Shown one piece after another: positions 20,050 to 44,987 of a DNA stretch of 64,000 nt. The stretch is taken from NCBI GenBank assembly GCA_047967505.1, contig CM106538.1; one strand, 5' to 3'. Below the pieces are notes generated by a model that had not been told where the DNA came from, made no database searches, and saw only the letters and a list, made by a program, of their open reading frames with translations. The stretch's first letter is position 1, and each line of letters starts with the position of its first letter. Made by a program: the position numbers and the translations under genes. The DNA comes from Dipteris shenzhenensis. Lineage: Eukaryota.

Positions 20050-20540
20050 GTCTCCCTTTCAGAAAATGCCAAGTTGGATGGAAGCAACCATGGCATCCAA
20101 AAATTTAAGCTTGAGAGTATTCTCAAAGCTAAAAAATTATGGGGTAGAATGGACGGGACGTAAAACTTTCAAGGGAGAATTTCGAAAGTGATGATTATAA
20201 GAGCGAACATGCTCATAGTCTCGTGAACTTGAACATTAAAGTAATATTGTCCATGTAGGTAGGAATTTAAAAATCCCAACTAATAGTTTGGAAGATACTG
20301 CTTAGTACATATGAGAATGCCAGTACTTCAAAGGCTCTAGTCATTAAGCATGCTTAGAATGCGAGAGGATCAAAATGTTAATGATCATTTAAATGAACTC
20401 CAGAACCTGCTAGACCTACTGTCAGTGCATGGTTAAAGATGTCTGATGAAAAAGATATCTTCGTCTCATTGGTATTTGAAACTTGTGGGGACAATTTTGT
20501 CACCATTCTCCCTTATGGAGTTAAGCCTCCCACACTAACT
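20050..20540 (+). mobile_element. Degenerate Copia gag fragment
   Basis: KLDGSNH...KFKLESILKAKKLWG, NVNDHLNEL. Confidence 0.55.
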
Positions 20541-20599
20541 CAGCTTAAAGTATCGAGCAAGATAGCCTCCAAATATTCGAGATGATGTGAATTTGATGA

Positions 20600-23500: not shown

Positions 23501-23640
23501 TTTTTCTACCGCTATCTTGTTAAGTTTAAGAATTATTCAGCACTTGACGCCAACTGGGTTGATGAAGAATAATTTATAGAATATCCACATATCCTACAAA
23601 TGTATAATGAAACCTTTCAATTGGGAAAAACTGAATAGAA
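20600..23640 (+). pseudogene. Degenerate Gypsy gag-pol (RT, RNase H, integrase, chromodomain)
   Basis: [49 protein letters not shown]; many frameshifts. Confidence 0.85.
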
Positions 23641-25719
23641 GCCGAGGGGATATCACAAAACCGTATTTATTCCCAAAAATTAAGAAAATATTTTATTTTG
23701 AGGTTAACAACTCTGGTCAAAGAGAATAATTGACTTCGGTCAAAGTGGATTGATTTCTGTCAACTAAAAAAGTTTACTTGAGTTTGCTTAGTGGCATGCT
23801 GGGACGCCCACAGAGAACAAGGATTAGCCCAGAGAATTAGAATGCATGCATTGGCTAACCTTTAACAGGTGCAATGTGTTTAGTGGTGTTTTATTTATGT
23901 GCATGTAGGAAAAAGGCATGCAACCTAGATGTCCAAAGTGCTAAAAGATGTTCAACATTCAAGCTTACTATTTTAAGCAAGAATTGCCACGATTAGCAAT
24001 CCATTCGTCTCTGCTACGGAGAAGGACAAATTTTGGAGCTGATTGCTTAGTAACAGCAATTCTGATGTAGCTTCTTCTATGTGCACCGCGAGAGCTGCTC
24101 TTTGTAACCGACTATTGAAATTCTGAAATAAAAACCTTCGACGAGGGGGAGGGGGGTCTTTTTTCTGGCCCCTAATGTGTGTGTGTTCTTTGTTCTTTCT
24201 CATCTTCTTTCAATGGATTGTATTCCCACAAAAAAATTCGTTGTTATTCCCTCCAAAAGGAAGTGATCAGATACAAGTTTTCTCCTATTTTCTCTCAATT
24301 CGAGTTTTCCCTGGTGTTTATCTGCTGCGAATTGTGCCAGCTGCTACATATTTTGTTCAACCGCTACAATCTGCTTTCATTTGCTGCGTATTGAGAACTT
24401 TGGCTGCAAATCCACTTGAAACTGCTGCGTTAGGGTTTCTAGTCTGATGACAAATTCGTTTTTAGAGTTTCCAGGCTAAGGAATGTGTATCCAAAACTTT
24501 CCGCCAGAGATGGACCATTTCGCGAAGGTCACCAGTGAAATCAATAAGATTGCTTACACCAACGCTCTCTAAATTCGCATTCTTACCGTATGTTCAAGGC
24601 TAAATCTTTTACCCAACCATCAAACCTCAACACCCTTCATTAAATTTCATTAAATTTCTAGGTTGCAGGAAACGTCCAAAAATGTATGAAAACGCCGTTT
24701 CCATACGTTTCCTAGTACCTGGCATTTCCGAAACATGGAAATGCTTGGGAAACGTTTGCATGCAAGGAGCGTTGGAAAAAATCGTATTTATAGGCCTATC
24801 ACATACATGGTTGGTTGCAGGCGACGAATGGAGATATCCAAATCTCTTTGATGGATTGGCGTCGACAAAGCTTCCACAAATCTTCTAATTGCGATACGGG
24901 AGAGCTCAACTAGCGACACTCCGACGCTGGCCTCTCTGCGAGAGCATCCCACCCTGTCCATGGACGAGGATTTGACACCACTACAGATTGAGGAGCGACG
25001 AGTTCTTCTACAACGGCAGGATGTTGCCTGCAGGGAGGGAAAATGGGCCGTGGTCCGAGATGGTAGGTTGTTGACCGACACCCGTCGGGCTCCCACCCGT
25101 ACCTCCTAGGGAGACGGACCCTATGAGACTCAAGTTTTCGAGACCCTAGACTGCACCATTTGAAACTCTAATGGTACCTTATGGTTAGACTTAGGGAACT
25201 TCTCAAAGTCTTATATAGGACGAGACATAGTCTTTTACACGGAGACACACCAGAGCCCTGAGTGTCCACTACCGATAATCAATGACTACACATGGAAGTC
25301 AGCCTCCAGGGATGAGAAGAGGGATACAGGAGGAGTCCGAGGATCAGGTGGGATCGCAGTATTGTACAAGCCTTCTCTTGTTGGAGCCATCTCCATTGAG
25401 GGCAAGGACGCACACTCTCGATTCATGCGAATTCGGATCCGACGCACAGACACCCGTGACCTTTTAATAGCGATATGCTACTTCCCGCCAGACACATCCC
25501 ACTTCGTCAAAGTGGCACGAGAGGAGGGTGAGACATCACCATATGCACCCTTACATCAAGATATCTCGGATCTTTCAACCCACGGGGAAGTTCTCCTCGT
25601 TGGGGACTTCAATGCTAGGATGAGCATGCGTCAGGCACCACTCCTAGACTTCCGAGACGACTCTATTATGCTACCAGACATGGACGTAGATGGAGCAGGA
25701 ATGACCACGACCTCATCGG

Positions 25720-26191
25720 GAAAAAATAATTTCACCGAGACTTGTAGCATCTACTGCCCTTTCGTCGCGGTGCGCAAAAGGGTCCCAATCTGAGACAATG
25801 TACTCTTGCACTTTTCAACTGTGCTACCTGCAGAGATTTGCTCTCAAACTCGAAAAAAAAAGAAAGCAACACTAATCCTCTTACTAGGACACCACGAACT
25901 TGGTTTACTTTCTTAAGCTCCTTACCACGAACCGAGCTCTGATACCATATAAAGAGAGTGGGAGAGAAAGAAGGAGTCTCACTTGCAGCTTTCTTACATA
26001 CACAATGAAGCAATATACACAAATGAGGAAGCTGAAAACAGTTTTCTCTTCTTAGTTCTGAAAGCCAAAAAAAAAAAATAGATGAACCCTATATGTGGGT
26101 CTCAAACCAAACTCAGCTAACTAAGGTGGCATACTAACTGAGCAACTAACTAGAGTACATAAAGATAGCTGTCATCCAGCTATTATTCACA
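25720..26191 (-). mobile_element. Truncated LTR element (5' LTR 25948-26191, PBS 25936-25947, leader)
   Basis: tggtatcagagc on minus next to a 244-bp segment starting TG; LINE sequence resumes at 26192. Confidence 0.6.
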
Positions 26192-26507
26192 GACGGTGTA
26201 CCAACCGCATCTGCAGCTAACAAGTCGGTGACAAATATGTGGAAGGGGAGAGTAGGGAGCACACCCACACACACAAGCAGGATAAGAAACAAGAAGTGTG
26301 GGGATAAAAGGTATGTGTGTACCTCCCCTAGCACACAGTGAAACTTATATATGAAAGGATAAGGTTACAACACTAAGTACAGTGTACTTAGTGTACTTAA
26401 CAAATAAAGTACTAAGTGTACTAACTGTACTTGGGTGGCCATAGAGCCTTTACCCCAACAACCTCCCACTTAAAGGCAATATGCCCTCAAGTAAAAATAA
26501 ATGAGGC

Positions 26508-27825
26508 TCAACCTATACCCATCAACTGTCGGCAATGTGCAAACCGCTCTGCAGGCAAGCCTTTTATCAACAGATCTGCTGGATTATCATCTGTGTGAAT
26601 CTTGACAAGCTGAATCAGCTTATCATCTATCACCTCCCTGATGAAGTGATACTTCACATCAATGTGCTTTGTCTTTGCATGAAAGACAAGATTGTGTGCC
26701 AACTGAATAGCACTCTGACTGTCACAATGCAACAATGGAATATCACCTGTAATGCCCAGATCTCCCACTAGCCGAGATAACCATAAGGCCTCCTTGCATG
26801 CCTCTGTGGCTGCAATATATTCAGCTTCCGTAGTAGACAAGGCTATGCACTGCTGCATCCTTGACATCCATGACACTGCACCTCCAGTGAATGTATAAAC
26901 ATAACCGGTAGTAGACTTCCGGTTATCGGGATGACCAGCAAAATCTGAATCCACATAACCATGCACCTTTGCATCTCACTTGCCAAAGCATATGCACAAC
27001 TCCTGTGTGCCCTTCAGGTATCTCATGATACCTTTCACTGCATTCCAATGCTTCTTGCCTGGATTTGCCATATACCTACTAACCACTCCCACTGCAAACG
27101 CAATATCAGGTCTGGTAGCAACCATGGCATACATGAGACTGCCACAAGCTGAAGCATACGGAATCTTGGCCATTTCAGCCCTATCAGCATCTGAGTGTGG
27201 GCTGTCCATTGCACTGAGTTTCACATACGGAGGCAATGGAGAACTAAGGGTTTTCCCCCCCTCCATATGAAACCTATGCAATACTTTGCCAATATATTCG
27301 GTCTGAGACAAATACAACAAACACTGTCCCCTGTCTCTCCGTATCCGCATTCCCAGTATGTGATTTGCATCACCAAGGTCCTTCATATCAAAGGCCTCAT
27401 GCAATCTTTTCTTAAGGTCATCAAGCTCCTTACGAGCTCTACCAACAATAAGCATGTCATCCACATATAAAATGAGAATGATTAAGCTGCCATTGGCAGC
27501 CCTTTTAGTACATAAGCAGTGATCGTCATCACTTCTCCTGAAACCTTGGGACTTCATGAAGGTATCAAATTTCTTATACCATTCCCTTGGTGCCTGTTTC
27601 AGCCCATAAAGGCTCTTTTTAAGCTTGCATACAAGTGACTCCTTGCCCTTGACTGCAAATCCTTCTCGCTGCTGCATGTAGATCTCCTCATGAAGATCAC
27701 CGTGAAGAAAGGCTGTCTTCACATCCATTTGGCATAATTCCAAATTCTCACATGCAACCAAAGCAAGTACAATCAGTGTGGTCATCTTAACCACTGGAGA
27801 AAAGATCTCATCAAAATCAACACCA
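26508..27825 (-). pseudogene. Copia RT and RNase H, one in-frame stop at 26976-26978
   Basis: QMDVKTAFLHG, SLYGLKQAPR, LYVDDM, TRPDI, GYVDSDFAG, STTEAEY, TKHIDVKYHF. Confidence 0.92.
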
Positions 27826-27853
27826 TACAACCACACCTTCCTTGTGGAATCAT

Positions 27854-28648
27854 CTATAAATGTGACTGTGCACCTCCAAGTGAAGGACTAGGCATCTCAC
27901 ACACATCTGTATGCACAAGCTCAAGTTGAGCATCTTTATGTCCTAATCTGCCACACTCAACATCTTTGTTGGAGCAGGACTTGCTCCTCCCTTTTCCCCT
28001 TTCCTGAGATTTGCCTCTTTGCTGACTTCTCCCCCTTGCATTTAAGGCATTGTTAGGCTTTACTGCATCTTGAGCTTTCAGCTTCTGCTCTTCTTGCAAA
28101 ATCAGCCCTGTGATATCTGAAAAACTTATGAAAGTGTTTGCATTTGTTACAGCTGTGGTGAATGTATCCCAACTTTCAGGAAGAGAAATCAAGAGTGCCA
28201 TACCTTTGGTTTCCTCATCCACCACATATTTTTGATTTGCAAGTTGAGTGACAATTGAATTAAACTCATTGAGATGTGCATCCATGGAGGTCCCTTCCTT
28301 CATCTTCAGATTGAAGAACTTGCGCAGCCAATATATCTTTGTGGCTACACTCTGCTGCTCATATGTGTCCTGTAGCTTTTTCCACACACCCCAGGCTGTT
28401 TTTTCACCATCCACATTCCAAACAACACTCTCATGGAGTGACAATTCAATTATGGACTTTGCTGACAGATCAGCTAGTGCCCAAGCATCATCAGATGTGC
28501 CAGTGGGCTTCACACCTTTGTGTATAATAGGAGCATGAAACTGCCTGAGAATTAGCACATTCAGGACCATCTTTTTCCACATTGGGTAGTTAGCAGCCCC
28601 CTGCAACTTTTTAATATTGAGAAGAGAAGATTCCGAGGATGAAGCCAT
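27854..28648 (-). pseudogene. Copia gag fused by deletion to a short integrase fragment
   Basis: KLQGAANYPMWK, LLISLPESWD, broken knuckle ECGRLGHK joined to LELVHTDVC. Confidence 0.85.
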
Positions 28649-29471
28649 TACAATCAGCAAGAAATATAACCCACACTTGGGTGCCTGACTCCCTGCAAAC
28701 TAAGTGCACAGATGCACTTGTAGTTGTGCTCAAAAGTTAATTCCTGCAATTTTCTACTGTCTGTTTCCTGCCGGCTGCAGATCCAGAAAAATAATACTTA
28801 ATGCATTAATTGAGGCTCTATAGTACAGTACAGCAGTATCTTGATTTGACACAATGTATGTCCCTGCTGTAACAGTGAAAACAGCACTGTTTTATGCACT
28901 TTAAACTTCAGTAAAGTGTCTGTTTACAGTCCAAAAAATTGACTCCGGACAGTACCCGACTGTACTTTCTAGTACAGCGACAGAAATTGACTGTATAACT
29001 GTCCAAAACTGTCAGAATTAGACTTTCTCTTGCCTCTATAACTGTGTTACACAGTTTAGAACTTGAATGAGGCAAAAGCCCCTTGACTAGAAGCCAATTT
29101 TGAAGATTTTAGTGCATACACAGCTTTCCCAAAGCTCCACTGATCACATAAAGCATCTAGGTGTTTCCCCCAACACTGATATGCATAAAAATGTCAAAAG
29201 CCCCAATTCATACGCATCTGCCACTGTCCCGTAAGTCATAAAATGCATCAAATCCTTGCACAAATCAACTCCAATCAGGAGGATATACGCAAATAAGTGC
29301 GTGTAGAAGCCAATGCTTGGCTGTGGCTACAAAAGCCCCTTGATTCCACAATTCAGAATTTCTCTCACATAGGAGGCATAGATCTGCAGATCTACCTCAC
29401 TGACAACAGACGGAACCCAAAAAAACGGGTGAAGTGGGCTGCTATACGATCGTGCACATCTTCGAGCTCTC

Positions 29472-31847
29472 TATTAAGCAACTAAGCAATTCCCACTTTA
29501 CGGGGCAATCAAATGGCTTACAGGCCAGCCAAAAGGCCAGCTCTCTCAGCCAAACAAATGGCCTGCAAGTTCAGCTGGTCTGGCCGACCAGATCTGGCCG
29601 ACCAGTTGGCTGACCAGCTGGCAGGCCCACCGACCAACTGGCAGGCCCAACCGACCAGCTGGCCGACCAGCTGGCAGGCCCACCGACCAGCTGGCCGACC
29701 AGCTAGGTCTGGCCTATAAGAGGCCTTTGCCCTCACTCTTCTTTTTCACTCTTCCTGGACAGGACAGGACCTGCAGCTGATCCTCATCTCCTCCATCTTT
29801 TGCTGCAGGCCCGCCTGCTCCATCTACCTCTCCTCTGCTGTCTCCCTCTCTTGCCTCTCCTTCATGCCTCCTGGTTGCTTCATCCTCTACTCCAAGATCT
29901 GCTCCCAACTTCTGCTCCTCTGCTCAGATCTGCTCCCCTACTTCAGCTCAGCTCCTTCTGCTCCAGATCTGTCCCATCCTACTCCAGATCTGTCCCCTTC
30001 TGCTCCTCTTCTCCAGATCAGATCCTTCTACTCCAGATCTGTCCCATCCTACTCCAGATCTGTCCCCTTCTGCTCCTCTGCTACATAACAGCTCCTTCTG
30101 CCCTAGATCAGTTCCTTTTCTTCATCCTATTGCTATTCCAGATAGCCTGAAGGTTCCTTCCTCAGAGCATGCTGGTTTCAGCCATCTCCAAGGGCAGCTC
30201 CAGCTCCCATCATCCTCGTCATCATTGAGCTACACGGAGGACTGCGTGACGCTCCCTCTGTGGCTATCTGTTCTACTGTCTCTCTACAGATTCACCTCAG
30301 CCACGGTCCTTCAGACACGATGGCTTGAGGTTCTTGTATTCAGTTTTTCATATTACCGACAGGCACTATGTTTTCTGAGTTCCGTTCTTCAGTTGTATCT
30401 GAGTATTGTCTATTTTCTGATCGCTCCACTGCAAACCCTATGGTTTCTCTATCGTTTCTCTATATGGTATCAGAGCCATGGTGATGAGAGCCATGGAGAT
30501 CAGAGCCATGGTGATCTAAAGACCCCAGATCTCAGGTGATCTAAAGATTCTGCTTCTTCATGGAGGCCATAGGTACAGGGAGCATCACTCCTATGAACAT
30601 ATCAGTTTCCTCTTCATTCCGCTGCGCACTAAGGGAGAGACCTCCATCTTCTACTCCCATCCCTCCCTCCCTTTCAGAACTCCATCTTCTACTGCCATCC
30701 CTCCCTTCCTTTCTTACCTCCATCTTCTACTACTATCCCTCCCTCCTTTTCTAGGTTTCTGGCTTGACACTCCCCATTCCTTCGAAAGAGGGGGTCATGA
30801 CACTTCACCTCTACCACCATCGACATCCCTACACGAAGCTCCAAGCACACAATATTTGCCCCTCAAAATTGGCAATTGAGAGGGGGTATTAAGCAACTAA
30901 GCAATTCCCACTTTACGGGGCAATCAAATGGCTTACAGGCCAGCCAAAAGGCCAGCTCTCTCAGCCAAACAAATGGCCTGCAAGTTCAGCTGGTCTGGCC
31001 GACCAGATCTGGCCGACCAGTTGGCTGACCAGCTGGCAGGCCCACCGACCAACTGGCAGGCCCAACCGACCAGCTGGCCGACCAGCTAGGTCTGGCCTAT
31101 AAGAGGCCTTTGCCCTCACTCTTCTTTTTCACTCTTCCTGGACAGGACAGGACCTGCAGCTGATCCTCATCTCCTCCATCTTTTGCTGCAGGCCCGCCTG
31201 CTCCATCTACCTCTCCTCTGCTGTCTCCCTCTCCTGCCTCTCCTTCATGCCTCCTGGTTGCTTCATCCTCTACTCCAAGATCTGCTCCCAACTTCTGCTC
31301 CTCTGCTCAGATCTGCTCCCCTACTTCAGCTCAGCTCCTTCTGCTCCAGATCTGTCCCATCCTACTCCAGATCTGTCCCCTTCTGCTCCTCTTCTCCAGA
31401 TCAGATCCTTCTACTCCAGATCTGTCCCATCCTACTCCAGATCTGTCCCCTTCTGCTCCTCTGCTACATAACAGCTCCTTCTGCCCTAGATCAGTTCCTT
31501 TTCTTCATCCTATTGCTATTCCAGATAGCCTGAAGGTTCCTTCCTCAGAGCATGCTGGTTTCAGCCATCTCCAAGGGCAGCTCCAGCTCCCATCATCCTC
31601 GTCATCATTGAGCTACACGGAGGACTGCGTGACGCTCCCTCTGTGGCTATCTGTTCTACTGTCTCTCTACAGATTCACCTCAGCCACGGTCCTTCAGACA
31701 CGATGGCTTGAGGTTCTTGTATTCAGTTTTTCATATTACCGACAGGCACTATGTTTTCTGAGTTCCGTTCTTCAGTTGTATCTGAGTATTGTCTATTTTC
31801 TGATCGCTCCACTGCAAACCCTATGGTTTCTCTATCGTTTCTCGATA
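29472..31847 (+). mobile_element. Non-coding non-autonomous LTR element (TRIM/LARD-like) with TA...TA termini
   Basis: LTRs 29472-30464 (993 bp) and 30887-31847 (961 bp), differing by one 32-bp repeat unit and ~2 substitutions; TSD ctctc; PBS 30465-30476; PPT gagaggggg; 422-bp interior. Confidence 0.93.
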
Positions 31848-33806
31848 CTCTCCGGCGATGTCGACGGCGAGGACCTGCACCTGTGGCAAGGACCTGCACC
31901 TGTGGCGATGGCGAGGACCTACAATACTATGGCGCTGGTGGCGACGCTGACGTCGCTGGTGGCCGCTGGCCGCTGGCTGGCGCTGGTAGCTACTGGTGGC
32001 GCTGGTGGCCGCTGGCCGCTGGCTGGCGCCGTGTCGCTGGCTAGCGCCGCGTCGCTGGTAGCCTTGGCCCTGGCGGGCGCCGCGTCGCTGGTGGCCTTGG
32101 CCCTAGCGTAGCCAATGGCCTTGGCACTGGCGTCGCCGGTGGCCTTGGCCCTAGCAACGAATGGCCTCAAAAGGGCTGCTAGCGTAGCGCTAGCAGCTGA
32201 AGGCACTGTCTGACGGCGTGGCACTGTGCCTAGCGATGACTGTGCCTAGCGATGGCTCATCGATGAGGCTGGTAGGCGAGGAGAGCAGGAGCAGCTGTCG
32301 ACGAGGAGGAAGAGATCACGGGACAGCCCAAGCTGGTCCTCCTCCTCCACCACTTTGAGTGGGCTGGTAAGGATTGGACGCAAGGCTCTGATACCAGCTT
32401 TGGAAGGGGAGAGTAGGGAGCACACCCACACACACAAGCAGGATAAGAAACAAGAAGTGTGGGGATAAAAGGTATGTGTGTACCTCCCCTAGCACACAGT
32501 GAAACTTATATATGAAAGGATAAGGTTACAACACTAAGTACAGTGTACTTAGTGTACTTAACAAATAAAGTACTAAGTGTACTAACTGTACTTGGGTGGC
32601 CATAGAGCCTTTACCCCAACAAAATACACAACGGTCACCCTGGCATATCACGAGTAGAGCTCGATATCTCAACACTGAGTTTATCGCATATGGGATCGAT
32701 ATGTTAGCTCCGATCCTAGCAAAGCTATTCAATGACGCTGTTTGCCTTGGCTTCCCCGCACCTGGACACTCAACACCATCACTCCCATCCACAAGACAGG
32801 GGATCACATAGACCCGAGTAACTATAGGACTATCATGATTGGACATGTGATATCCAAGATCTATGCAGCTGTATTGGATGCATCGGTTAGCCTATTCGCA
32901 AAGATGAGAGCGCTCACAGTAGAGGATCATGCCGGTTTCAAGCGAGACCATGGGACTATGAATTACATACTCACACTCAAGAGTGTCATTAAGGATGTCA
33001 GATCACGGAAGGAGAGGGTGTATTATTGCTTTGTGGATTTCCGCAAAGCCTTTGACACAGTACCTCGAGCTCGTCTCATCACATGCCTACAGACACTGGG
33101 ATTTGATCAAGAGATCATCTGATCAGTCATGGCACTGTATGAGAGTCTCAGACTGAGGTTGGACAGGCGCAGGTTGGACAGATGAGATCCTAAGTATCAT
33201 AGGTTGTCCCTTATCACCGCGATCCTGTTTGGCCTCTGCATCAATGAGCTTGAGACTTTCATGGAAGCGTTCGGAGGGACCGGTTGCTCACTTGCTAGGA
33301 TCATCATCAGGATTCTTCTTTATGCAGATGACATGGCACTCTTGTCGTCCACACCCGAGAGGCTCCATTGACACTTGGATGCACTCTAGGCTTCTTGTTT
33401 ATCCCATGATTTGGAGATCAACCTTGACAAGACCAAGGTCATGATCTTTAACACCTCTCGAGCAAACCTGCAATGGAAGCAGATTACTTTTACTTTAGGT
33501 GGTTACTTTTACTTTCGGTGGGTCACTAGTTGAGATCGTATCCTCATACACTTACTTAGGGATCATCTTCTCCGGCCCGATCTTCAAGATGAGATCAGCG
33601 ATGCAGGCCAGACTGAGCAGGGGATACGCACTGACTCGGCTAGAGAGACAATGCTTTCACTCCCACTTCCATGACCCTCAGACCAAGGCTCTTCTCTTCG
33701 ACTCCTTGATCCGACTAGCCGGTATGTATGGCAACCCTTGCTGGGGGCCTGACATATCAGAGATAGAGTGGACACGGGTGGAGCGCCTGCAGATCCTCAT
33801 GCTCTC

Positions 33807-34823
33807 GAGACTATATTGAAGGTGGGCCCTGAACATGTAGTTCAGGTTGTTACTGATAATGCCTCAAATTGCAAGCTAGCTGGTCATCTTGTGGAGCAAG
33901 AGTTCAAACAAATCTTCTGGACCCCGTGTGCTGCCCATTGTTTGAACTTGTTGCTGAAGGATCTTTCAGCCCTGGCGTGGATGGAGTTGGCAATTAGTCA
34001 TGGCAAGGAGGTGCAGCAATTCATCTCCAATCATGAGGCACCAAGAGCCATGCTGTCCAAATTTTCAAAACTGAAGTTGCTGAAGCCAGGTGATACAAGA
34101 TTTGCAACAAACTTCATCATGCTCCAGCGCTTGGTAAAGGTAAAAGCGTCCTTGAGGCAGATGGTTGTCAGCCAAGATTGGGATGATTGGAGAGGTCGCA
34201 ATGATGAAGCCCTTCGGATTCAAAACACCATACTGTCAACCTCATTTTGGGATGAAGTGGAGAAGTATGTGAGAGTGTGTTGGCCTATCATGCTCATGTT
34301 ACAATTGGTGAACAAGGATGATGCATGTCTTGGTGTGATTTATGAAGGTATTGATCAAATGCTTGAGAATATAAAAGAGGTCCTAGCTGGAGAAAGCAAT
34401 GGAGACATTTTGTATGAAGAAATAAGAGAGATTGCAGAAGTGAGATGGCATATGCTTCATTCACCTCTACATGCAACAGCCTTTCTTCTAAATCCAAAAT
34501 GGTTCTGCAAGAATCCACAACAAGATGCTGAAGTGATGAGAGGTTGGAGGCAAACTTTGGATAGAGTGGGGAAGGATGCTGCAGACAAAACTTTGATGAA
34601 GGATCAATTGTTGATGTATCTTGGCCAAGTGGGTGCATTTGGTGAGCTGTCCGCTTCTTCAGATAGAGAGTGTCTTTCTCCCATTGCTTGGTGGGAAAAC
34701 TATGGTTCAGATACCCCTCGATTGCGGAAGTTGGCGATCAGGCTCCTCTCACAAGTATCGAGTTCCTCTGCAGCAGAGCGGAATCGGTCCACCTATGGAT
34801 TCATCCATTCTGTGAAACGCTAA
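33807..34823 (+). pseudogene. hAT transposase C-terminal half (RNase H-like core and hATC dimerisation region), N-terminus deleted
   Basis: VVQVVTDNASN, FWTPCAAHCLNL, TRFAT, WWENYG, SQVSSSSAAERN. Confidence 0.9.
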
Positions 34824-35356
34824 ACTGTTAATGGATGGAACAAGTCATCTAGCTTTGCTCAGCCTACCCCTGCCCCTTCATTACTCAGTTTTCACTTGTC
34901 TTTACTCACCCTACCCCTAACGTTTCCTACTGATTCAATCAACGTTTCAGAAACGTTTCAAGCACATGACATTTCCTGCATGGAAACATTTCGTGCAACC
35001 TCGTTAAATTTTCGCACAAAGTTACAAGCTGATTATTGCTCTTGCTGTGTGGAATAAGATGATGCAGAGAAATACAAGCATAGGGGCAGAGGATAATGGA
35101 CACAAATATAGGAAAGATTACCACGCTAAGGCTGCCGAGGAGTAAGAAAAAATAATAATTACCACGTAACAATATCCAACTTCCTAAGATACATCGGCAC
35201 AGTGTTTCCCCTATCATAACCGAATTTGGCTCTAATTCCAGGTTCCTGATGCTAATCGTAGTTTGCATTAAATTGATGTAAAGAAAATTTAAAAAAAGTT
35301 CAGTCCTACATTGCACAGCTCAAAAACATATTTAATTCTTCTGAGAAAGAAATTAC

Positions 35357-35405
35357 CTCTTTATCCTGAAAAATGAGGCCCCCGACACTTTCCAAGTGTG
35401 CAATG
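35357..35405 (-). CDS. PDE338: PDE338/RLSB-like exon 7 (IAHLESVGGLIFQDKE)
   Basis: 49 nt, gcAG and GTaatt, phase 2/0. Confidence 0.88.
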
Positions 35406-35618
35406 CTGCAGTAGAGAAGGGGCGAAACACACAGCTCAAAACTTCAGTGTGTTATCCAATTAACATGTAAATCCTCCACTATAGCTTCAAAAGAGATTAT
35501 TAGCACATAAGTGACACAAGTCTCTGTCACTGTCACCAGAAAATACATAAAAATATCCCCATCTAGAAACTTTTCTTGACATCTGCCAACCCGTCTTTTT
35601 AAAAAATAACTGAATTAC

Positions 35619-35744
35619 CTGAAAGCTACTTGCTGAGGATCTCGGCCTTTAACTGACATTACTTTGACCTTTTCACCCTCTGTAAATAGATCTCCAACTC
35701 GTTTTACATACTCTCTCGACATATTGGAGACATGTACAAAGCCT
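35619..35744 (-). CDS. PDE338: PDE338/RLSB-like exon 6 (GFVHVSNMSREYVKRVGDLFTEGEKVKVMSVKGRDPQQVAF)
   Basis: 126 nt, acAG and GTaatt, phase 2/2; GxxHxS...GEKVKV S1 core. Confidence 0.92.
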
Positions 35745-35923
35745 CTGTATTGGGAAAGACATGATGTAAGAAAAAGAACATTTCATCAAGAAAACGGGAG
35801 CACACTGAAACAACAAGTAGATCACTTAGAAAAGAGAAAAGAGTTCTTATAATTGGCTGGTAAATTCTGATTCACATTACTGATAGCCGTGCTAGCTTCA
35901 TTCCAGACACTAAAAACAATTAC

Positions 35924-36021
35924 CTGAGTCTTGTATTGTTGACTTCAACTTGCATGCCATAGGGATACACCTTTGAGACAGTACCATCATGCACCATGCC
36001 CAGCCGAAGATTTTTCTTCAT
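35924..36021 (-). CDS. PDE338: PDE338/RLSB-like exon 5 (MKKNLRLGMVHDGTVSKVYPYGMQVEVNNTRL)
   Basis: 98 nt, gcAG and GTaatt, ends in phase 2; G-x-V-x-x-V-x-P-Y-G S1 start. Confidence 0.9.
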
Positions 36022-37279
36022 CTGCATCACAAAACCATTCTCCCGACTGAACAGTGCAAAACAAGCTTCCCCAACATACATAACTGTACATGGCAGCCAT
36101 TCTAAACAAGCTTTGATACTCCTAGGCTATTCTATCAGACTTCCGCTGAATTGTTGTCTTTTCTAACAGCAACAAGCCTCAAAATGGCCGACCCAACCTG
36201 TCCAAAAGCGACCCCCCTCAGTTTGTATAAACTTATCTGGCAGGGTCCTCTTTTTGAGGCCTTGCAAACCCGGCTTGGCCATGTGGCATCCAGCCACCAT
36301 ACACACATTAACAAAGGCAAGAAAATAATACTAGAATAATCAGACCTAGAAATTTTCTATTGAACTAAAAGTCCTCTCTCTGCTTGACTGATCCTTCTCA
36401 GCCTAATATTCTCCCCAGGAAAAAAAAATCATAATCTGTTATTTTAACAAAAACCATGTAACATATACTTAATGGAATGAATCAAATTTCCAAAAGTGAA
36501 TAATGGTTAACTGTTTTTAACAAGAACTTCAAAAGTTTTCAGAGGAAAAGAATCATGATTCATTGTTCTTAACAAGATCTTCAAGAAAAACATCAGTGGA
36601 TCTTTTGTTTGCTGTCCTAATGTGGCAGAAACAAACGCCCCATAGACCCAAAAATGACAACAAAAGGATAACCAAACATTGGAAAAAAATATTTAGTCCT
36701 TGGTGCTAGTATTTGTACATTGAACCACCTGAAATCAGACGCTTAAACGTAGAAATGCAAATTATATATTATTTTCCTTCTCAAAATGTATCAGACCTTG
36801 ATAAACAGCATTTATTGTTATGGACATTCAGAAAAATGTCATGCCAACCTTTGAAAGTGATAAGACCATGACAATCCCTTTCATAGAAATTCTCAGCACA
36901 AAAAATTTCTGCAGTTTTTTTTCCTTCTTTTGCAATGATTTTCTCTTTCTAGCACGCATTTAATGATCTATTCAAAAAGGAATTTAAAGACAGCCATCAT
37001 TTTTTCCCTCTCTGTGGAAGTTGACAGTGATAGATAGTGTATAATGACTATGAGCACATCAACTTGAAATCAAAGATGTATGGTATCTGAACCAAATCAG
37101 AAGTATGTGAAAGAGTATGACAACCAATGTTTTAAGAAAATTGAAATCAAAAGTTTTTGTACTGATTCACAAGAGAATACAGTTGCCAACTTATTGTACT
37201 CTAGTTCCAAAAAACACCAAAGGTATATATATATTGAACTGGATTAGAAAGCACGGAGCAGAAAGATTCTAAATATTAC

Positions 37280-37360
37280 CCAAGCTTTGAATTCACTGAT
37301 GATGAAATTTGATGCATTCTCTTCAACTGAGGTTATTAACACTGGCAGCATTCTCCCAAT
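37280..37360 (-). CDS. PDE338: PDE338/RLSB-like exon 4 (IGRMLPVLITSVEENASNFIISEFKAW)
   Basis: 81 nt, gcAG and GTaat, phase 0/0; completes the second S1 domain. Confidence 0.9.
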
Positions 37361-37529
37361 CTGCATATGCAAAAAAGAAATGCTAAAAAGTCTTGCCCAA
37401 ATAAGGAATCTTATTTCAAGTCCAAGTATAGCCTCCCACTTGTCAAATAGTCGTGAAACCATTAATAACTTTGTGGTGGAATCTGTAAGATGGATGCAAG
37501 TTCAATATGCATGTGATAGATCGACTTAC

Positions 37530-37601
37530 ATATTGCTGGAGCATAGCTGGACTCTCAGGTCTTTGAAGCAACTCAGACCTAGGTAGAAAAGCCCGCAGAC
37601 C
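37530..37601 (-). CDS. PDE338: PDE338/RLSB-like exon 3 (GLRAFLPRSELLQRPESPAMLQQY)
   Basis: 72 nt, cAG and GTaag, phase 0/0; GLRAFLP S1 motif. Confidence 0.9.
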
Positions 37602-38019
37602 CTGATTCAATCAAAGAAATTTGAGAGGCTCTATCAATTTGTGAATTTCTATAAAGCAAAGCTCCAATCAGATTAATAAAGTCAGCAACCCGAAAAACAC
37701 ACACATGCACACGTGAACATATGTCCACAGGTGCATGGGTGCATGCCTGTGTGCAGATGCACATGTTAAAAATTTGGGAAGCTGGGAAGAGTCAGTAAAA
37801 TATGTACATTGTGTGCATGCGTGTGACACTCATGTTTGTCAGGCATGTCAGCCACATGGAAGCAGATGACTTACTGAGAACCATCACGCAGTAAACAAAT
37901 ACAGAAGTTCATGATGAGGGAGAAGAATACTCCAATTGTTCCTCAAAAATCCAAACATCAATATGTTGCAACTTACCTTATAATAGAAATCTACTTCTCT
38001 AGAAAACAAGAAATTTTAC

Positions 38020-38094
38020 CTCATAATAACCCACAAGCCCACCATCATTGGATTGTGCTATCTCAACGTAGACAGCCTCACCCCGCTGCATGAT
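38020..38094 (-). CDS. PDE338: PDE338/RLSB-like exon 2 (IMQRGEAVYVEIAQSNDGGLVGYYE)
   Basis: 75 nt, ttacAG acceptor and GTaaaa donor, phase 0/0; S1-type NxGGL motif. Confidence 0.88.
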
Positions 38095-38739
38095 CTGTAA
38101 GGATTGCCAAAAACAACACAATCAACTTTCTGCTGCTTAATGCTACTTGTTTAAAAAGTTATTCAAACAGCCAAGGAAAATATTTTCATTCCACGTCAAA
38201 GCCACAACATTCAGGAAACATTTCCCAGTAAACAAATAGTAACGCCAAAAGTAAGAACTACCTTTTTAGAGGGAAACACCCTTTTAGAGGGAAACACCTA
38301 CACTTTTGACGGCACATTTAAGCGCAACTCAACATGCAAGGGCGAAAATCAGTAGCGAGCCGATAAACATTGCACCGCTAAGATGACGGTGTACTTGAAC
38401 AGCAAACTTGCAACGATGAGAGAGCATTCCATGATGTGAATCGCTTCAACTTTAAACAAGGCTAAGACAAAGACTAGTTCAACTCATATGACATCAGCAG
38501 TTTTTCATGGTATGAGAATATGATTGGCCTTCTTTTTAGGGGCTCAGGATTGGCTTTTCATTTTGCATTTTTAGAATTTCTATCTGCACTCATTGAATGC
38601 CACCTGAAGATGGCTTCACTGACTCTTTTTAAACTAGGTCCCACACTCTGCTGCCCTAGAATGTTTTCTTCTCAGCATTTGCAACAATTGAACCTTGAGT
38701 ACAGAAGGAATTTCTCTGAGCTCTACCTCTTCTACAATC

Positions 38740-39490
38740 ACAAATGCACATACATGCATGTGTATGTTTGTATGCACATATGCATACACGTGTGTATATG
38801 TATCATGTAGCGCAATGCATGTGCATGTGTATGCATGGGCGTGGGTGCAAGCACGGTGTGTGGTCCTGTCTGTGGGGGTATCTGCATGCATGTGTAAATA
38901 TATGCTTATTTATTCATCTAATTATATACACATATGCATATATACATACTTGCATACACATGCACATTTATACTTCCTTCGGCTCTTCTAATCTCTATGT
39001 ATGTGTAAACATATATGTATATGCAAATATATATACATATAGATGAATCCAGGATCATGCCCAAACTCATCCTCTAAAGACACAACACTGCAGTTCAATC
39101 TCATGATAGTCACTCATAAGGTAGGAACTCATTTACTCCAAGCGCATAACGGTGGGTGTAGACCATATGTAGACATGTACCTATATGTGTACTTAAATGT
39201 CTACATATACACATGTGCACGCAAATGCATATAAATGTGTGCATTCTTAGGCTTTTGTGACCTCTGTATGTATATGTATATGTATCTAAATGAATGTGTG
39301 TGCCGCGCGCACAACAAAAATACACACATGGACGCGTGTATATTTGTAAGCATGTGTAAGTGCATCGATTATATGTGCGTGTGTTGTGCACACGAGAAGA
39401 GAGAGACACACACACAGACACACACCTGCAATTGCACACGCGCACACGTGTACAGCAGCAGGTGTGCCTGTGTGCATGCATGCATATAGT
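38740..39490. repeat. Degenerate (CA/TA/TG)n microsatellite field in intron 1
   Basis: Alternating purine-pyrimidine runs. Confidence 0.85.
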
Positions 39491-39521
39491 AATCTCCAAA
39501 AGGAGCAATACATGCTGCTAT

Positions 39522-42047
39522 TGTTGGAATATGGAAGAAAGAACTAGAACTAGAAACTAGAAATGACAAGACTGAAAGATAAGAAATACCTTGAGAAGAG
39601 TGTAGACAAGACACAAGCTAGACTGATAGATTACAATGATGTGACCCATTGAATATATGGGCCAAAGTACAAGACATAAAGCAAGAGTGCTTATGGGATA
39701 ATTGTAGAAGTGCCACATGGCACACACTAAAGACTAGACTTAGACTTAGACTTAGACAAATGTAGACTAGGAAATAGTACACTTAGTGTGCACTTATCTC
39801 CAACACCCTCCTTAAGTGGACACTAGGAGTAAGACAGAAAGACAAGACTAGAAGACAGACTGATAGACTGAGAGACGAGATTAGAAAACATGACAGACAA
39901 ATGATCCTGAGACACCCCTCCTCAAGTGATATCCTCATATGGGTTCACAAGGGTAAGGACAAGATGGATCTAAGACACAGTCAGATTTATAGACAAATAG
40001 ACAGACAGACAAGACTAGATAGACAGAAGACTGACTGTAGACAAATAGAAAGACCAAGACACTAGAACCCCTTGACCTACATCATCGGTGGTCAAGGTGG
40101 TAAACAAGACAGAGGCAATCAGAAAGCCCACTTCTCATCATGTGAGGAAGGAACAACGGGATCAGCTGATGGAGATGTTGCAGCAACATGGGCTGAGGTA
40201 GTTGCAGGAACTGATGTAGAGGTTTTGGAGTAGCAGTCCTTCTCCCGGTGATTATCACGGCCACAAATGGTGCATGGATGAGCCTTGAAACAGTCCTTCT
40301 CCACATGATTAGTTTTGCCACAATGGGTGCAAGGCTTTCTTACCTTAGAACTTCCTTTCTTTGCTAAAAATGCAGTGTCACTTACCTTTCGTTGTTGAGT
40401 TCTTTCTTCCTCTTGGAGAGCATTGATGATACCCTCAAGAGAAGGATTATTATGATACTTGAAGGTAGTGACAAGAGTATCATAGGAGTCAGGTAAGCTT
40501 TTGAGAAGCACAGCAATAGCAATATCTTCGGAGATGGGAGACTTGACTGACGCAAGCTGAACCATAAGACTGCGAAGATAATTGACATGAGAGGCTATAG
40601 TAGCTCCTTCCTGCATATGTAGATCAAAGAATGAGATCATAAGTGCAATCTTAGAGTTTTTAGATCGGGCTCCAAAAAGAGTATCCAAAGTGATCCATGC
40701 TTGAGGAGCAGACTGTATGTCGGAGATGTGATGAATGTAATCATCTCCAAGGCCGAGCAATATGATAGCATAGGCTTTGTCATTCTTGGCAGCGACAACT
40801 TGCTCAGATGGACCTTCGGGAGCATCACGGTGAACAATGTCCCAAAGGCCTTCTTTCATAAGGTGGCACTTGATTTTGATCTGCCAAGTATGAAAGTTGG
40901 ACCCATTGAATTTGTCGATAGATATGAGAGAATGAGAGGAAGATGCCATGTGGGAAGGTCTTACCTCTTGCTAGGATGCAAGGGCAGTGTCTATTCCCTT
41001 ACAATATTGCAGAAATAAATGAGAGGAAGAGATCCCGGAAGCCGGTTCTCTCACCACTTTGTCAGGGCCGTAGCATATGACAGCCCATCGAAGCAGGAGG
41101 AACCAGCAAAAAAGGAGAGACTGTTCAGCAAACTGAAAGAGGCAAAAGCTCAGTACCTTAATCCCGGGCAAAAGTAGAAGTGTAAAAAGGATGCATATCT
41201 CCGTGAAGATGGAGCTGGAGAAGTCGTCAACCTGTGCAGGTACGGATTCCGTACAGTCGTACGGACTGTACGGACATCGAGCAGAGTACGGAGTACGGCC
41301 GACGTACGGATGTCGTGCAGAGTACGGACGACGTACGGATGACGGCCAGAACTGTACGGATCTGTCCGACGTACGGATGACGGCGCAGAGCTGTACGGAT
41401 AGCAGGAACGGGTGCTAGATCTGTCGTGACAGCAGAGTGCTGCGCAGATCTGGCGCTCAGATCTGTGGCTGAGCTGCACAGATCTGAAGCGCAGATCTGG
41501 CGCAGAGACTTGGAGCACGCGGCGCAGGCGTATACGCAGCAGAATCGCGCAGATCTGGAGCGCAATGGCGGGGCAGAAAGAGGGCAGATCTCGGAGAAGA
41601 GGCGGCCAGCAGAAGCATAGAAGAGGGCGGTGCAGAGGTAGAGGTGCCACGAGAGGCTGAAGAGAGAGATGCCGGAGGGAGAGGTAAACTGAAAGGAGAA
41701 GACGAAGCTATGGCTACAGCAGAGTGAGAGGAGAGGAGAGGGGATCTACATGCTCTGATACCATGTTGGAATATGGAAGAAAGAACTAGAACTAGAAACT
41801 AGAAATGACAAGACTGAAAGATAAGAAATACCTTGAGAAGAGTGTAGACAAGACACAAGCTAGACTGATAGATTACAATGATGTGACCCATTGAATATAT
41901 GGGCCAAAGTACAAGACATAAAGCAAGAGTGCTTATGGGATAATTGTAGAAGTGCCACATGGCACACACTAAAGACTAGACTTAGACTTAGACTTAGACA
42001 AATGTAGACTAGGAAATAGTACACTTAGTGTGCACTTATCTCCAACA
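39522..42047 (-). mobile_element. Gag-only non-autonomous Copia-type element (TR-GAG-like)
   Basis: 284-bp LTRs 39522-39805 and 41764-42047, identical by eye, TG...CA; TSD gctat; PBS 41752-41763; PPT aaggaggg; no pol. Confidence 0.96.
40119..40949 (-). CDS. Intact Copia-type Gag, 276 aa, two CCHC zinc knuckles
   Basis: KFNGSNFHTW, LLKSLPDSY, CTHCGKTNHVEKDC and CTICGRDNHREKDC. Confidence 0.92.
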   Translation of the reverse strand: MASSSHSLISIDKFNGSNFHTWQIKIKCHLMKEGLWDIVHRDAPEGPSEQVVAAKNDKAYAIILLGLGDDYIHHISDIQSAPQAWITLDTLFGARSKNSKIALMISFFDLHMQEGATIASHVNYLRSLMVQLASVKSPISEDIAIAVLLKSLPDSYDTLVTTFKYHNNPSLEGIINALQEEERTQQRKVSDTAFLAKKGSSKVRKPCTHCGKTNHVEKDCFKAHPCTICGRDNHREKDCYSKTSTSVPATTSAHVAATSPSADPVVPSSHDEKWAF

Positions 42048-42482
42048 GCTATGTGCTTCCTATCTGCAGTGATTGAATGGCAATAGCAATATGGCATCAT
42101 TGGCTCTTTCTAACAAGGTCCCCAGCTCTGGGTGTTTTCTTCCAACATTCCTCGCATTGTACTCAGTGATAGAATATAGCAGTAGGGGACTTGAATATAG
42201 CAACACTCCCCTAGACTCTTCTATACTGGGGTTTATCAATTTCTGCAGCAGCACGCACTGCTCTGTTTGGACACATATGCAAGCTCTTGATCTTCCATAT
42301 GACAATACAAGCTTCATCTTTGTGCCCGATCTGTGCAAACTTGAGCTAACATTAACCTCACATCTAGCCTCTTATCCAACATCATTCATTTTATTCAAGA
42401 TAAAGCACGAGTTGCCACTGATAATGGAGCAGGTACATTGCATAACAAGAGATAACAAATAGAAATGAATAGAAAGCTGAAC

Positions 42483-44987
42483 CTGCTTGACGCGATGCCA
42501 TGCCATTCTTCGAGCTGGTGATCTGACTGATAGAATTGCCCTACCATCCCCCAAGGTCATGCCCTGGACTTCAGCAGCAACAACTGTGCCTGCATCGACG
42601 CCTGAACCCATTGCATAGCCAGAGTAGACTTCTTTGTCTTCCACAAGCAGACTTCTGCCAACAGGGGCCAAAAAGCCTTCTGGATTCTCACTAGCATTTT
42701 TGGAAGGGAGCTCAAAAAAGTCATTTTCAGCATTGTTGTCCCCAAATAGTTTCAAATCCTTCGCAAGCATCAGTCCTGGCAGCTCTGCTCCGATTTCTAG
42801 CTCAAGTGTTTGCTCGTCTCCAGAAATGACCGCACCTAGGACCAAATCTCCGTCCTTTGGCTCGTAGAATTCTGCTCTTGACTCAGGCAATTGTTCTTGT
42901 TCTTCCACAGAACCTACTGGAGCCTGTGTGCTGTCTGCAGGGCTGGCCTGCATCGTTTGGCTGCTGAAGGGAGAAGCAGATACTGAATCATATCCCGTTT
43001 TGAAATCTTCCACTGGCTTGGCAACCATAACACTATCAACCCCATTAGTGTCACCTACACGTTCTAAGGGCTTTGTTGGTATATTTGGAATAAAGTCCAG
43101 AGGCCTGGATTCTGGCCTGTCAGCAGGCTTGGCATCCAGCAACCCGCTCCTATCTGAAATGGTGTCTCCACCATTCCACTGATTCTCCACAGGTTTTTGG
43201 TCGATTGGACTCTCCCAAGGCCGAGGACTCCGTGATGCCGCGTCCCCAAAATTGTTGGTAGATACATTCTCGACTTGCTCGGCATCCACTGTACCACTCC
43301 CGCCCATGTAAGATTTCGTACCCCCAACGCTGTCCCTAGGCCTGTAACTGGTTTGACTACTGCTTCCCATTACTGTGTCACCACTCGAACCCAATGAAGT
43401 GTTCCCATACCGAGACCCTGCATCTGAAAACTTGCTGGGAGGGGGAGGCATGGTGTTCAACGTGTTGCTTCTATCAAACATGGAGTTTCTCTCTGTCGGC
43501 TCAGCATCCCTAAGACCAGCGCTTTCCGAGGGACTCATTGGATAACTGTTACCAAGAATGGTGTCACTTTCTGCAGGCTTGGCATTCCCTACACCATACG
43601 CAGACGAGGGTCCCAATGAGCTACTGTCATTGAGAACGACTTTCCTTTCAGTTGGTTTGGACTGCGCAGCACTGTCCCAGTTATTTGGAGCCGGAGAGTA
43701 AACCTGGCCTGATACCGTATTCCTTTCTGCAGGCTTGGCCTCCGCAACGCCGTACCCAGGCGAAGCGCCTACAGGGTTCGTATAGGTGTCCCTTTCAGGT
43801 AGCCTGTTCTCCCTATCGGCATCTCCACCTGTGACAGTCGATGATGGACTGCTACTGCCAGCCATGGCATTCCGTTCCGCTGGTTTGGCATCCTCACTTC
43901 TGTACTCAGATGAAGGTTCCACTACCTTACTGCCACCCGATATGGTATTGATATCCTCGGGTTGCGAATCGCCAGCCTGGTTTACATATTGACTTCTTCC
44001 TGGTGTATAGGCCGGGGAATCTTCAGGCGTATTGTTCACATTCCTGCTAGCATCGTATAAACTCTCCGAAGACCTGATAACCTTGTAGCTACCGAGAGGC
44101 TTAGGTTCTTGGATAGGTCTATTCGCCCTTATATTTTCCGTCTCGATAGGCCTATTCATCCTCGCACTTTCCAGAGGCCTCGTCTTTCGGAGGTATCTGT
44201 AAGGCTGCGAGCCATCGTTTTTTTCAGCGTCAGCTTTAGCTTGGGCATTGAGAGTATCTAAATAGTCTAGCAAAGGAGAGCGTTGAGTGTCTTCCTTTGG
44301 CAGATAATCTTCACCAATCTGTTCTCCGTAGTATTCCTCGAAGACGCCACCAAAAGGGGGGGCTGGCGGCGGTGGGGGCACGTAACCTTCCATAGAATTG
44401 GTTGCGTAGATTTCGAAATCGAGGTCTGTCAGCTCTCGATTCCGTGGACTTTCAAACTTCGGGGGAGGGACATTGAAGAACGGATAGTCGTCGTCGTCGA
44501 AGTCCTCCTCGTCCAGGGGAGGGGGAGGGACGGAGCTCCGATTGGAGGTATTCTCGTAAGGCCCATTGGAGCTCGTATCCAATCGATCGCCCCCTCCGCC
44601 GCGAGGCTCCGGATTCATAATGTTTGGAAAATACTGCGAGCCGCCACCACCACCACCAGGCCTGGGGTTGACGGCGGTGTCGACGCCACGGTAGGCGCGA
44701 CCGGAAGAGTCGGAAGCGGCAGAGACAGGGGGGAGGGAGGGGGAGCGGGGGAGGGAGGGGGAGAAGTCTTTGAAGAGGAAGGGGGAGAAGAGGAGGGAAT
44801 GGGAGGAGGAAAGGTGGCAAGAGAGGAAGAAGCAGGGGGGACGGGGAGGGGAGAGGGAGAGGCAGGAGGAGCGATGGAAGGAGGAGGGGGAGGGGGAATG
44901 GCAAGCGAGGAGGAGGGGATGGGAAGAAGAAGAAGAAGGAGAAGGAGAAGAAGAAGAAGAAGGTTTGCAGAGCATGGAGGACGCCAT
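42483..44987 (-). CDS. PDE338: S1-domain RNA-binding protein (PDE338/RLSB-like), exon 1: transit peptide, long disordered extension, first S1 region
   Basis: ATG at 44987 (MASSMLCKPSSSS..., Ser/Pro-rich transit-peptide-like to ~VSAAS). 835 open codons ending EFYEPKDGDLVLGAVISGDEQTLELEIGA...GRAILSVRSPARRMAWHRVKQ, then CAG|GT donor at 42482. Motifs recalled as typical of the At1g71720 family. Confidence 0.88.

Follow-up and report, generated by a model that had tools for sequence, protein, structure and literature searches.

A stretch of 64,000 nucleotides from Dipteris shenzhenensis (assembly GCA_047967505.1, contig CM106538.1; this whole stretch is called the window below) contains, on its minus strand, a gene whose sequence marks it as belonging, in a long form, to the RLSB/PBR1 S1-domain family, and the encoded protein's N-terminal extension carries an array of 26-amino-acid units (residues 366-519, positions 43431..43892), each built around a short core of the K-P-x-E-R type. 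Our preferred reading is that this is an ancient array lying in a disordered stretch of about 450 residues of a seed-free-plant RLSB/PBR1-type protein, with the cores as putative multivalent docking motifs, and we would assign this reading as a whole a probability of roughly 0.55. Its parts differ in firmness. That there is a real, expressed and selected motif array in a disordered extension seems to us very likely; that multivalent docking is the job of the array is a tentative proposal, to which we would give somewhat less than even odds.

The array and the evidence for its age

Translation, the alignment of the units and autocorrelation at lag 26 together define the array. Its units begin at residues 366 (DAKPAERN, 43892-43815), 392 (43814-43743), 416 (EAKPAERN, 43742-43665), 442 (QSKPTERK, 43664-43587), 468 (NAKPAESD, 43586-43509) and 494 (DAEPTERN, 43508-43431), all on the minus strand. 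An earlier sequence-only reading of this DNA had placed the E codon of EAKPAERN at 43740-43742, where GAG is indeed found (43742-43740, minus strand), and had described four cores spaced 78 bp apart, which begin at 43742, 43664, 43586 and 43508 (residues 416, 442, 468 and 494), with DAKPAERN 50 amino acids upstream (residue 366, 43892) and NRLPERD between them; the range that it gave, 43431-43892, matches exactly the span from the start of unit 366 to the end of unit 494. It had also called the repeat exact, which holds for the four consecutive units but not for unit 392, which is shifted and 24 amino acids long (NRLPERD at residues 394-400), and it had located the motif within this range, where the array does lie but beyond which there are further copies. 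A decayed sixth unit follows at residues 520-545 (43353..43430, minus strand; FSDAGSRYGNTSLG...), keeping the 26-amino-acid register. In our alignment of six proteins (alignment A1) it is matched with SDAKPWDGNTGLG of P0001, the nearest relative found; its K and P are gone, and it is recognisable only by comparison with that protein. Of the remaining sequence of the units, TILGNS is retained in unit 468 only and ...YGV[AG] at two unit ends.

The 26-amino-acid array is the regularly spaced centre of a broader field of motifs, since copies of the pattern [KR]P[AVLIMFTWP][EDQ] also stand at residues 270-290 and 589-657. The upstream cluster is of short period (RPLES, RPIET, RPIQE and KPLGS, 5 to 11 amino acids apart, residues 268-297; 44097..44186, minus strand), has pattern copies at residues 270, 279 and 290, and is nearly identical in P0001. 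The downstream cluster is irregularly spaced (RPWES, KPVEN, KPADR, RPLDF, KPLER and KPVED, with K or R at residues 589, 598, 620, 628, 639 and 657; 43002..43229, minus strand), and P0001 has an aligned [KR]P at three of its six sites (598, 628 and 639).

Both the period and the motif exceed what shuffling produces. A BLOSUM62 autocorrelation had its peak at lag 26, with z values of 5.0 for residues 355-525, 5.6 for 340-680 and 5.6 for 250-700, compared with maxima at any of 100 lags of 4.8, 4.1 and 4.7, respectively, in 1000 shuffles per region; within residues 355-525 the top value fell at lag 52 (z 5.4). Exon 1 contains 13 copies of the pattern; 5000 shuffles of it averaged 0.56 copies and never yielded more than 6. 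At the DNA level, Tandem Repeats Finder (minimum score 30, positions 42300-45200) reported nine rows, all of them simple repeats in 44644-45053, with none in the array and none of period 78; the lack of a row in the array is consistent with an old repeat and is not evidence against a period at the protein level.

Comparison of the units with each other points to the same age. Across the 10 pairs formed by the five full units, each divided into an 8-codon core and an 18-codon spacer, mean DNA identity was 0.67 in the core and 0.37 in the spacer, and mean amino-acid identity was 0.57 and 0.14, so that the earlier description of diverged spacers and kept cores is clearly upheld, and the converse, a motif no more conserved than its spacers, is refuted within the protein. 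Where two cores encode the same residue, the same codon is used in only 17 of 46 codon pairs, which indicates that the likeness of the cores has been kept at the level of the protein and does not stem from recent duplication or gene conversion. The spacers have become almost random, yet the reading frame and the 26-residue spacing are still intact.

The TILGNS and YGV[AG] remnants in the window, together with the longer core of P0001, suggest that the ancestral unit was probably KPAER-x-x-ILGNS...P...YGVA, about 26 amino acids long. A unit of roughly this kind, [DN]-A-K-P-A-E-R-[ND]-x-I-L-G-N-S...P...Y-G-V-A, was duplicated long ago; the spacers then drifted almost to randomness, whereas purifying selection has preserved the [KR]-P-x-E-[RS] core of every copy, and P0001 has retained the motif and re-amplified it at a different period (67 amino acids).

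The array belongs to an open and spliced reading frame. The coding part of the gene (13536..44987, minus strand) spans 31.4 kb in eight exons, which join to 1056 open residues (~114 kDa, pI 4.8) from an ATG at 44987 to a stop at 13536. Exon 1 (44987-42483, within a stop-free frame of 45128-42372) supplies 835 residues and is followed by exons 2 (38094-38020), 3 (37601-37530), 4 (37360-37280), 5 (36021-35924), 6 (35744-35619), 7 (35405-35357) and 8 (13700-13536, stop included); the same exons were recovered by tblastn with P0001 as the query. In the public runs X1 and X2, one contig each spans six of the junctions, with CT..AC joints (GT..AG on the minus strand), and at the seventh a loose contig end at 35357 continues with the letters of 13671-13700, preceded by AG. 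The RNA type of these runs is only a guess on record, and we take their RNA nature from the splice joints: as the contigs carry canonical joints and cross exon 1, they are spliced transcripts from the same or a very close organism. The X1 contig is unbroken over 42483-44524 (11 letters differ) and the X2 contig over 42483-44786 (26 letters differ, with six gaps), and the six GT..AG joints have the depth of the X1 and X2 contigs that span exon 1; a third run, X3, gave small pieces only. Because spliced contigs from both X1 and X2 cover the array without a break, it is retained in mature mRNA. Nine of the 11 exon 1 differences in X1 were examined, and six are synonymous; the three replacements are A408P and M484R, both in spacers, and Q603R, the last residue of an 8-residue core window. 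In a sample as small as these nine of 11 differences, this hints at purifying selection across the whole extension.

Family membership and relatives

The assignment to the RLSB/PBR1 family comes mainly from the C-terminal part of the protein. An exhaustive HMMER search with exon 1 (E up to 0.001) returned 62 proteins, almost all aligning only over residues ~700-837, where the first OB-like domain lies. In its last 361 residues the window protein shares 64% identity with P0001 over 352 amino acids (blastp), 53-40% with P0004, P0002 and P0003 (the last from Adiantum nelumboides) and 37-44% with the remaining full-length matches, including the 521-residue P0032 (39% over 349 amino acids, E 3e-75). 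The sequence-only reading had placed the array in the N-terminal extension of an S1-domain protein of this family, and the identity to the S1-bearing P0001, together with shared blocks, bears this out. Exon 6 by itself scores 17.5 bits against Pfam S1 (PF00575; E 0.0057), below the 22-bit cut-off, and the domain is recognised through the orthologous P0001, which scores 54.2 bits at residues 998-1068, in alignment with window exons 5-6; P0032 scores 61 bits.

The window protein also carries EGLRAFLPRSELL and RRMAWHRVKQ, corresponding to the published RLSB blocks GLRAFLP and RRxAWxRVxQ. In the published alignment GLRAFLP occurs six times, including in maize, sorghum, tomato and Bienertia, Arabidopsis has GLRAFIP, and rows contain FRRLAWHRVRQ, a block shared by the window protein and P0032 (PMC3849040, supplement file 1). 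A 2016 survey of RLSB evolution took alignable sequence outside the S1 motif, at E below 1e-5, as the mark of the family (PMC4928308), and the match to P0032 is of this kind. In size the window protein stands apart, with 1056 amino acids and 114 kDa in place of a precursor of ~500 amino acids and a mature form of ~44 kDa, and the difference is the N-terminal extension; the angiosperm protein was purified as p44 (PMC3849040). The earlier statement that angiosperm RLSB is about 500 amino acids long and is not known to carry such an array agrees with P0032, which matches the published angiosperm rows and has 0 motifs. The name PDE338, which the earlier reading had used beside RLSB, has 0 occurrences in PMC3849040. 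A shorter search gave 13 proteins, including ones from the ferns Adiantum and Ceratopteris and the moss Physcomitrium, none of which bears the name RLSB in a database. The names RLSB and PBR1 refer to one Arabidopsis gene, At1g71720 (PMC3849040; PMC4870678). The 2016 survey reports RLSB-like transcripts in ferns and lycophytes, and its Fig. 1 alignment omits the less conserved N- and C-terminal regions (PMC4928308). Among the literature matches listed, none describes an N-terminal extension or a motif array in a fern RLSB, although the supplements of PMC4928308 may contain a mention.

We collected 75 relatives and counted the motif in them with the pattern as fixed on the window beforehand. 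Beside the 13 copies in the window (shuffle mean 0.68, reached in 0 of 5000 shuffles), P0001 has 12 (mean 0.62, 0 of 5000) and P0006 has five (mean 0.57, three of 5000). P0004 has a single copy (mean 0.33, 1420 of 5000), P0002, P0005, P0032 and P0008 have none (means 0.24-0.31, reached in all), and the 73 collected proteins other than P0001 and P0006 comprise 64 with no motif and nine with one. The expectation that orthologs carry the motif thus held for P0001 and P0006 but failed for the Adiantum-type group, P0002-P0005, and for the other 69 collected relatives, with 0 or 1 copy each. P0006 has short [KR]PxE motifs only. A profile of the window's five units was compared with 90 shuffled controls, of which the best scored 5.2 bits; four units of P0001 surpassed this score, a fifth equalled it at 5.2, and no unit was found in any other protein. 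A further search with alignment A1 recovered only P0001 among 8000 candidates, its word index probably having been swamped by low-complexity words.

P0001 (1149 amino acids) comes from a transcript assembly. It resembles the window protein in the S1 part, at the 64% identity given above, and in exon 1 at 44-45%, and it shares the N-terminal module, the upstream RPLE/RPIQE cluster and four or five recognisable units; [KR]P is present at 10 of the 15 aligned window motif sites (alignment A1). It differs in the form of the array: where the window has a 26-amino-acid period, P0001 has one of 67 amino acids (lag 67, z 11.6), with three near-identical super-units at residues 318-518. The super-units, which retain the longer core KPAQRDIILGNSKYMEPLSWYP, are a recent re-amplification of the array, and each contains one full unit together with RPIES and PKPTEK motifs. 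Two further cores, at residues 546 and 572, lie 26 amino acids apart and align with window unit 494 and the decayed unit 520.

A maximum-likelihood tree was built from 21 S1 regions, taken from blastp matches covering at least 280 query residues, with parts of P0005, P0006, P0070 and P0071 added by hand and 55 of the 75 proteins omitted as too short. In this tree the seven proteins with the N-terminal extension form one clade (support 100/100). With the root outside that clade, the window protein, P0001 (fork 90/88) and P0006 (99/97) branch off successively and P0002-P0005 are nested (100/99). The array- or motif-bearing proteins branch first and the motif-poor group lies within, an order that fits an ancestral array lost once.

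Disorder, docking and the rival explanations

The region of the array is predicted to be disordered, as had been proposed earlier. An AlphaFold2 model of exon 1, run with alignment A1, has a mean pLDDT of 37; residues 260-708 lie below 50 and contain no secondary structure (no DSSP element), and the blocks of the array lie at 28-37. Within the extension, only a helix at residues 238-256 is predicted with confidence (mean pLDDT 85 for the block 241-250), and the strands of the first OB-like domain are found at 715-832. The composition of the array is rich in S, P, G and N (15% S, 12% P, 11% A, 4.5% aromatic, GRAVY -0.93), and residues 255-700 as a whole have a net charge of -15 and a pI of 4.8, with the core itself at net +1. 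Searching PDB sequences with residues 260-666 (E up to 1) returned 0 matches. The ESM Atlas returned no usable look-alike for the 154-residue array, and for the S1 part of P0001 it returned only generic clusters of Streptophyta named "S1 motif domain-containing protein".

Predicted disorder, and a core conserved as its flanks drift, both within the protein and between species, are the features of a short-linear-motif array. In the docking reading, the cores would act as such motifs, offering several weak and equivalent docking sites on a flexible chain. One S1 protein would then hold several copies of a folded partner, or one partner with high avidity, and the partner would stay close to the mRNA that the C-terminal S1 domains bind.

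Several points weigh against this reading. First, should the array have no partner, it would be a well-documented but ordinary disordered repeat. Second, the advantage of the core over the spacer in comparisons between orthologs is modest: identity between the window and P0001 in alignment A1 is 56/120 in the core (46.7%) and 111/326 in the spacer (34.0%; Fisher p 0.016), and from residue 360 onward the figures are 41/96 (42.7%) and 78/245 (31.8%; p 0.077), in a comparison biased toward the core by the tendency of aligners to anchor on motifs. Third, the 26-amino-acid period is not conserved, being 67 in P0001 and without significance in P0006, in which 0 of 2 matches to the unit profile scored above the controls. 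The Adiantum-type relatives manage without an array, which shows it to be dispensable for the core function of the family, and the searches recovered three array- or motif-bearing proteins only, two of them from transcript assemblies. Finally, the pattern that gave 13 copies in exon 1 was written after the window sequence had been inspected, and the alignment supplied to AlphaFold2 had six rows only.

One rival is neutral growth of a low-complexity region, in which the extension would be a flexible spacer or a solubility tail, the repeat a relic of replication slippage, and the apparent core an effect of composition or of uneven mutation. Disordered motif repeats are common and turn over fast, and the differing period in P0001, the Adiantum-type group without an array and the weak contrast between core and spacer across orthologs all speak for it. 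We nevertheless consider it unlikely, at about one chance in five in ordinary terms, because neutral growth does not readily explain cores at 57% amino-acid identity, mostly in different codons, beside spacers that are near random (37% in DNA, 14% in amino acids), nor a motif 9- to 19-fold over shuffles in three proteins, nor [KR]P kept at 10 of 15 aligned sites despite an overall identity of 44-45%. The transcript differences, six of nine synonymous and two of the three replacements in spacers, lean the same way in a small and incomplete sample.

An intramolecular role seems improbable to us. The motifs would here fold back on the protein's own S1/OB domains, and the acidic extension would compete with RNA, tuning or autoinhibiting its binding. 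Such competition by acidic disordered tails has precedents among other nucleic-acid-binding proteins, and the charge of residues 255-700 would suit such a role; the core, however, is net positive and not acidic, and the model of exon 1, which includes the first OB-like domain, leaves the array at a pLDDT of ~30 without implied contacts, a weak argument. A predicted complex of the P0001 S1 part (780-1095) with the array (385-520) scored 0.00 in both runs, no controls having been folded, and is evidence neither way.

It seems about equally improbable that the cores are sites of processing or modification, with a protease or modifying enzyme reading K-P-x-E-R and the extension being removed or modified after import to leave a protein of ~40-45 kDa. 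The p44 form of angiosperm RLSB (PMC3849040), beside a precursor of 114 kDa here, and a conserved family part consisting of the last ~350 residues only would accord with this. Our analysis gave no sign of cleavage, and conservation of a 72-residue module, with 21 invariant columns, is not what one would expect of a discarded pro-region. Least credible, and in our view barely worth retaining, is a folded repeat domain such as a solenoid of 26-residue turns, which the regular spacing across four units might suggest, but which is at odds with the low pLDDT and lack of secondary structure, the S/P/G/N-rich composition with few aromatic residues, the unconserved spacers and the absence of a PDB sequence match at E up to 1. 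A SUMO-type psi-K-x-E reading of the motif was dropped, as K and E have two residues between them here and not one.

Gene setting and comparison with known systems

Besides the motif field, the extension contains a conserved module at residues 185-256 (44220..44435, minus strand), defined by alignment and by its predicted terminal helix and of the form DLDFEIYA..M.GY.PP...PF...E.Y.E..G.DY....LL.YL..LN. It has 21 invariant columns (D190 to N247) across the six proteins of alignment A1, is common to the window, P0001, P0006 and P0002-P0005, and in the exhaustive HMMER search was matched only by this seven-protein clade and by a fragment, P0039. Judged from its conservation and from the model, the extension's true functional anchor may be this module. 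The first OB/S1-like domain follows at residues ~706-835 (42483..42872, minus strand) and is recognised from its strands in the model and from being common to all 62 HMMER matches; a Pfam scan of exon 1 (E up to 1) returned no family. At the other end, residues 1-100 (44688..44987, minus strand) are rich in serine and proline (35% S, 16% P, net charge +5), which by composition alone is compatible with an organelle (chloroplast) transit sequence. In this region the X2 contig is six bases shorter at a CCA repeat at 44644 that codes for a run of glycines, several contigs break, and in a minor X2 contig 96 bases are skipped (44696 to 44793), the ends of the gap being non-canonical. These features of 44644-44793 (minus strand, ~residues 65-115) point to length variation or to assembly trouble in the low-complexity N-terminus.

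The introns and flanks of the gene are occupied by transposable elements. Intron 1 (4.4 kb) contains a small long terminal repeat (LTR) element at 39522-42047 whose two 284-bp LTRs (39522-39805 and 41764-42047) show 100% identity, a young insertion; its open reading frame (ORF; 40122-40970, minus strand) has only Copia gag, DUF4219 and zinc-knuckle domains, apparently without a polymerase, and sequences similar to the element are present in contigs of X1-X3. The last intron (13701-35356, 21.6 kb) is filled with transposon remains, among them a Copia reverse transcriptase (26976-27887), a Copia gag (27854-28699), a piece of a hAT transposase (33753-34823), a LINE-type endonuclease (25164-25793) and a Gypsy-type RNase H (15312-15818). 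The same stretch occurs twice in this intron, at ~29950-30520 and 31330-31930 on the minus strand, ~1.4 kb apart and with identical ORF translations, as either a tandem duplication or two LTR-like repeats. Upstream of the gene lie further retroelement remains, a zf-RVT ORF (46715-47212, minus strand) and an ORF with DUF4283 and a zinc knuckle (50934-51824, minus strand). A scan of 12 long ORFs revealed no further cellular gene.

Maize and Arabidopsis require RLSB/PBR1 for chloroplast function, and its target and mode of action are disputed: binding to the 5' region of an mRNA has been reported, and two groups disagree on whether rbcL or ycf1 is the target in Arabidopsis (PMC3849040; PMC4870678). 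Compared with the angiosperm protein, the window protein is alike in the C-terminal ~350 residues, that is, in an OB-like domain with an insertion, the RRxAWxRVxQ and GLRAFLP blocks, the Pfam S1 domain, and after it DKExVFxEAEEMA and a final IAN..WL block; the S/P-rich N-terminus is also common to both. It differs in about 550 extra residues between the N-terminus and the first OB-like domain, which hold the conserved module, three [KR]PxE clusters and the 26-amino-acid array. A protein twice as long as the angiosperm form, with a conserved module and a selected motif array, offers a handle that angiosperm proteins lack: the motif could be used as bait for a chloroplast tether of an RLSB-type protein. 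It is also a natural example of how a motif array ages, with the period (26 against 67 amino acids) and the spacers free to change and the sticker kept. These gains are tempered by the array being dispensable in related lineages.

A more specific role can be imagined, although we regard it as a long shot. RLSB has been reported to co-localise with Rubisco (PMC3849040; PMC4928308). An early-branching fern or seed-free RLSB might serve as a scaffold, its 10-15 K-P-x-E-R stickers binding a folded chloroplast partner multivalently and collecting it at the mRNA on the S1 domains, to form a hub for translation-coupled assembly or a small condensate, with the array lost in later ferns and in seed plants; candidate partners would be Rubisco or its assembly chaperones, the ribosome and the nucleoid. 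Multivalent disordered linkers of Rubisco are known in EPYC1 of Chlamydomonas, CsoS2 of alpha-carboxysomes and PYCO1 of diatoms. The likeness of the window protein to these is one of architecture only: a short sticker repeated at regular spacing, a disordered chain and a carbon-fixing compartment. To our knowledge, pyrenoids have not been reported in ferns. The motif itself is unlike the stickers known for EPYC1, CsoS2 and PYCO1, and the chain in the window protein differs from all three in being fused to an RNA-binding module.

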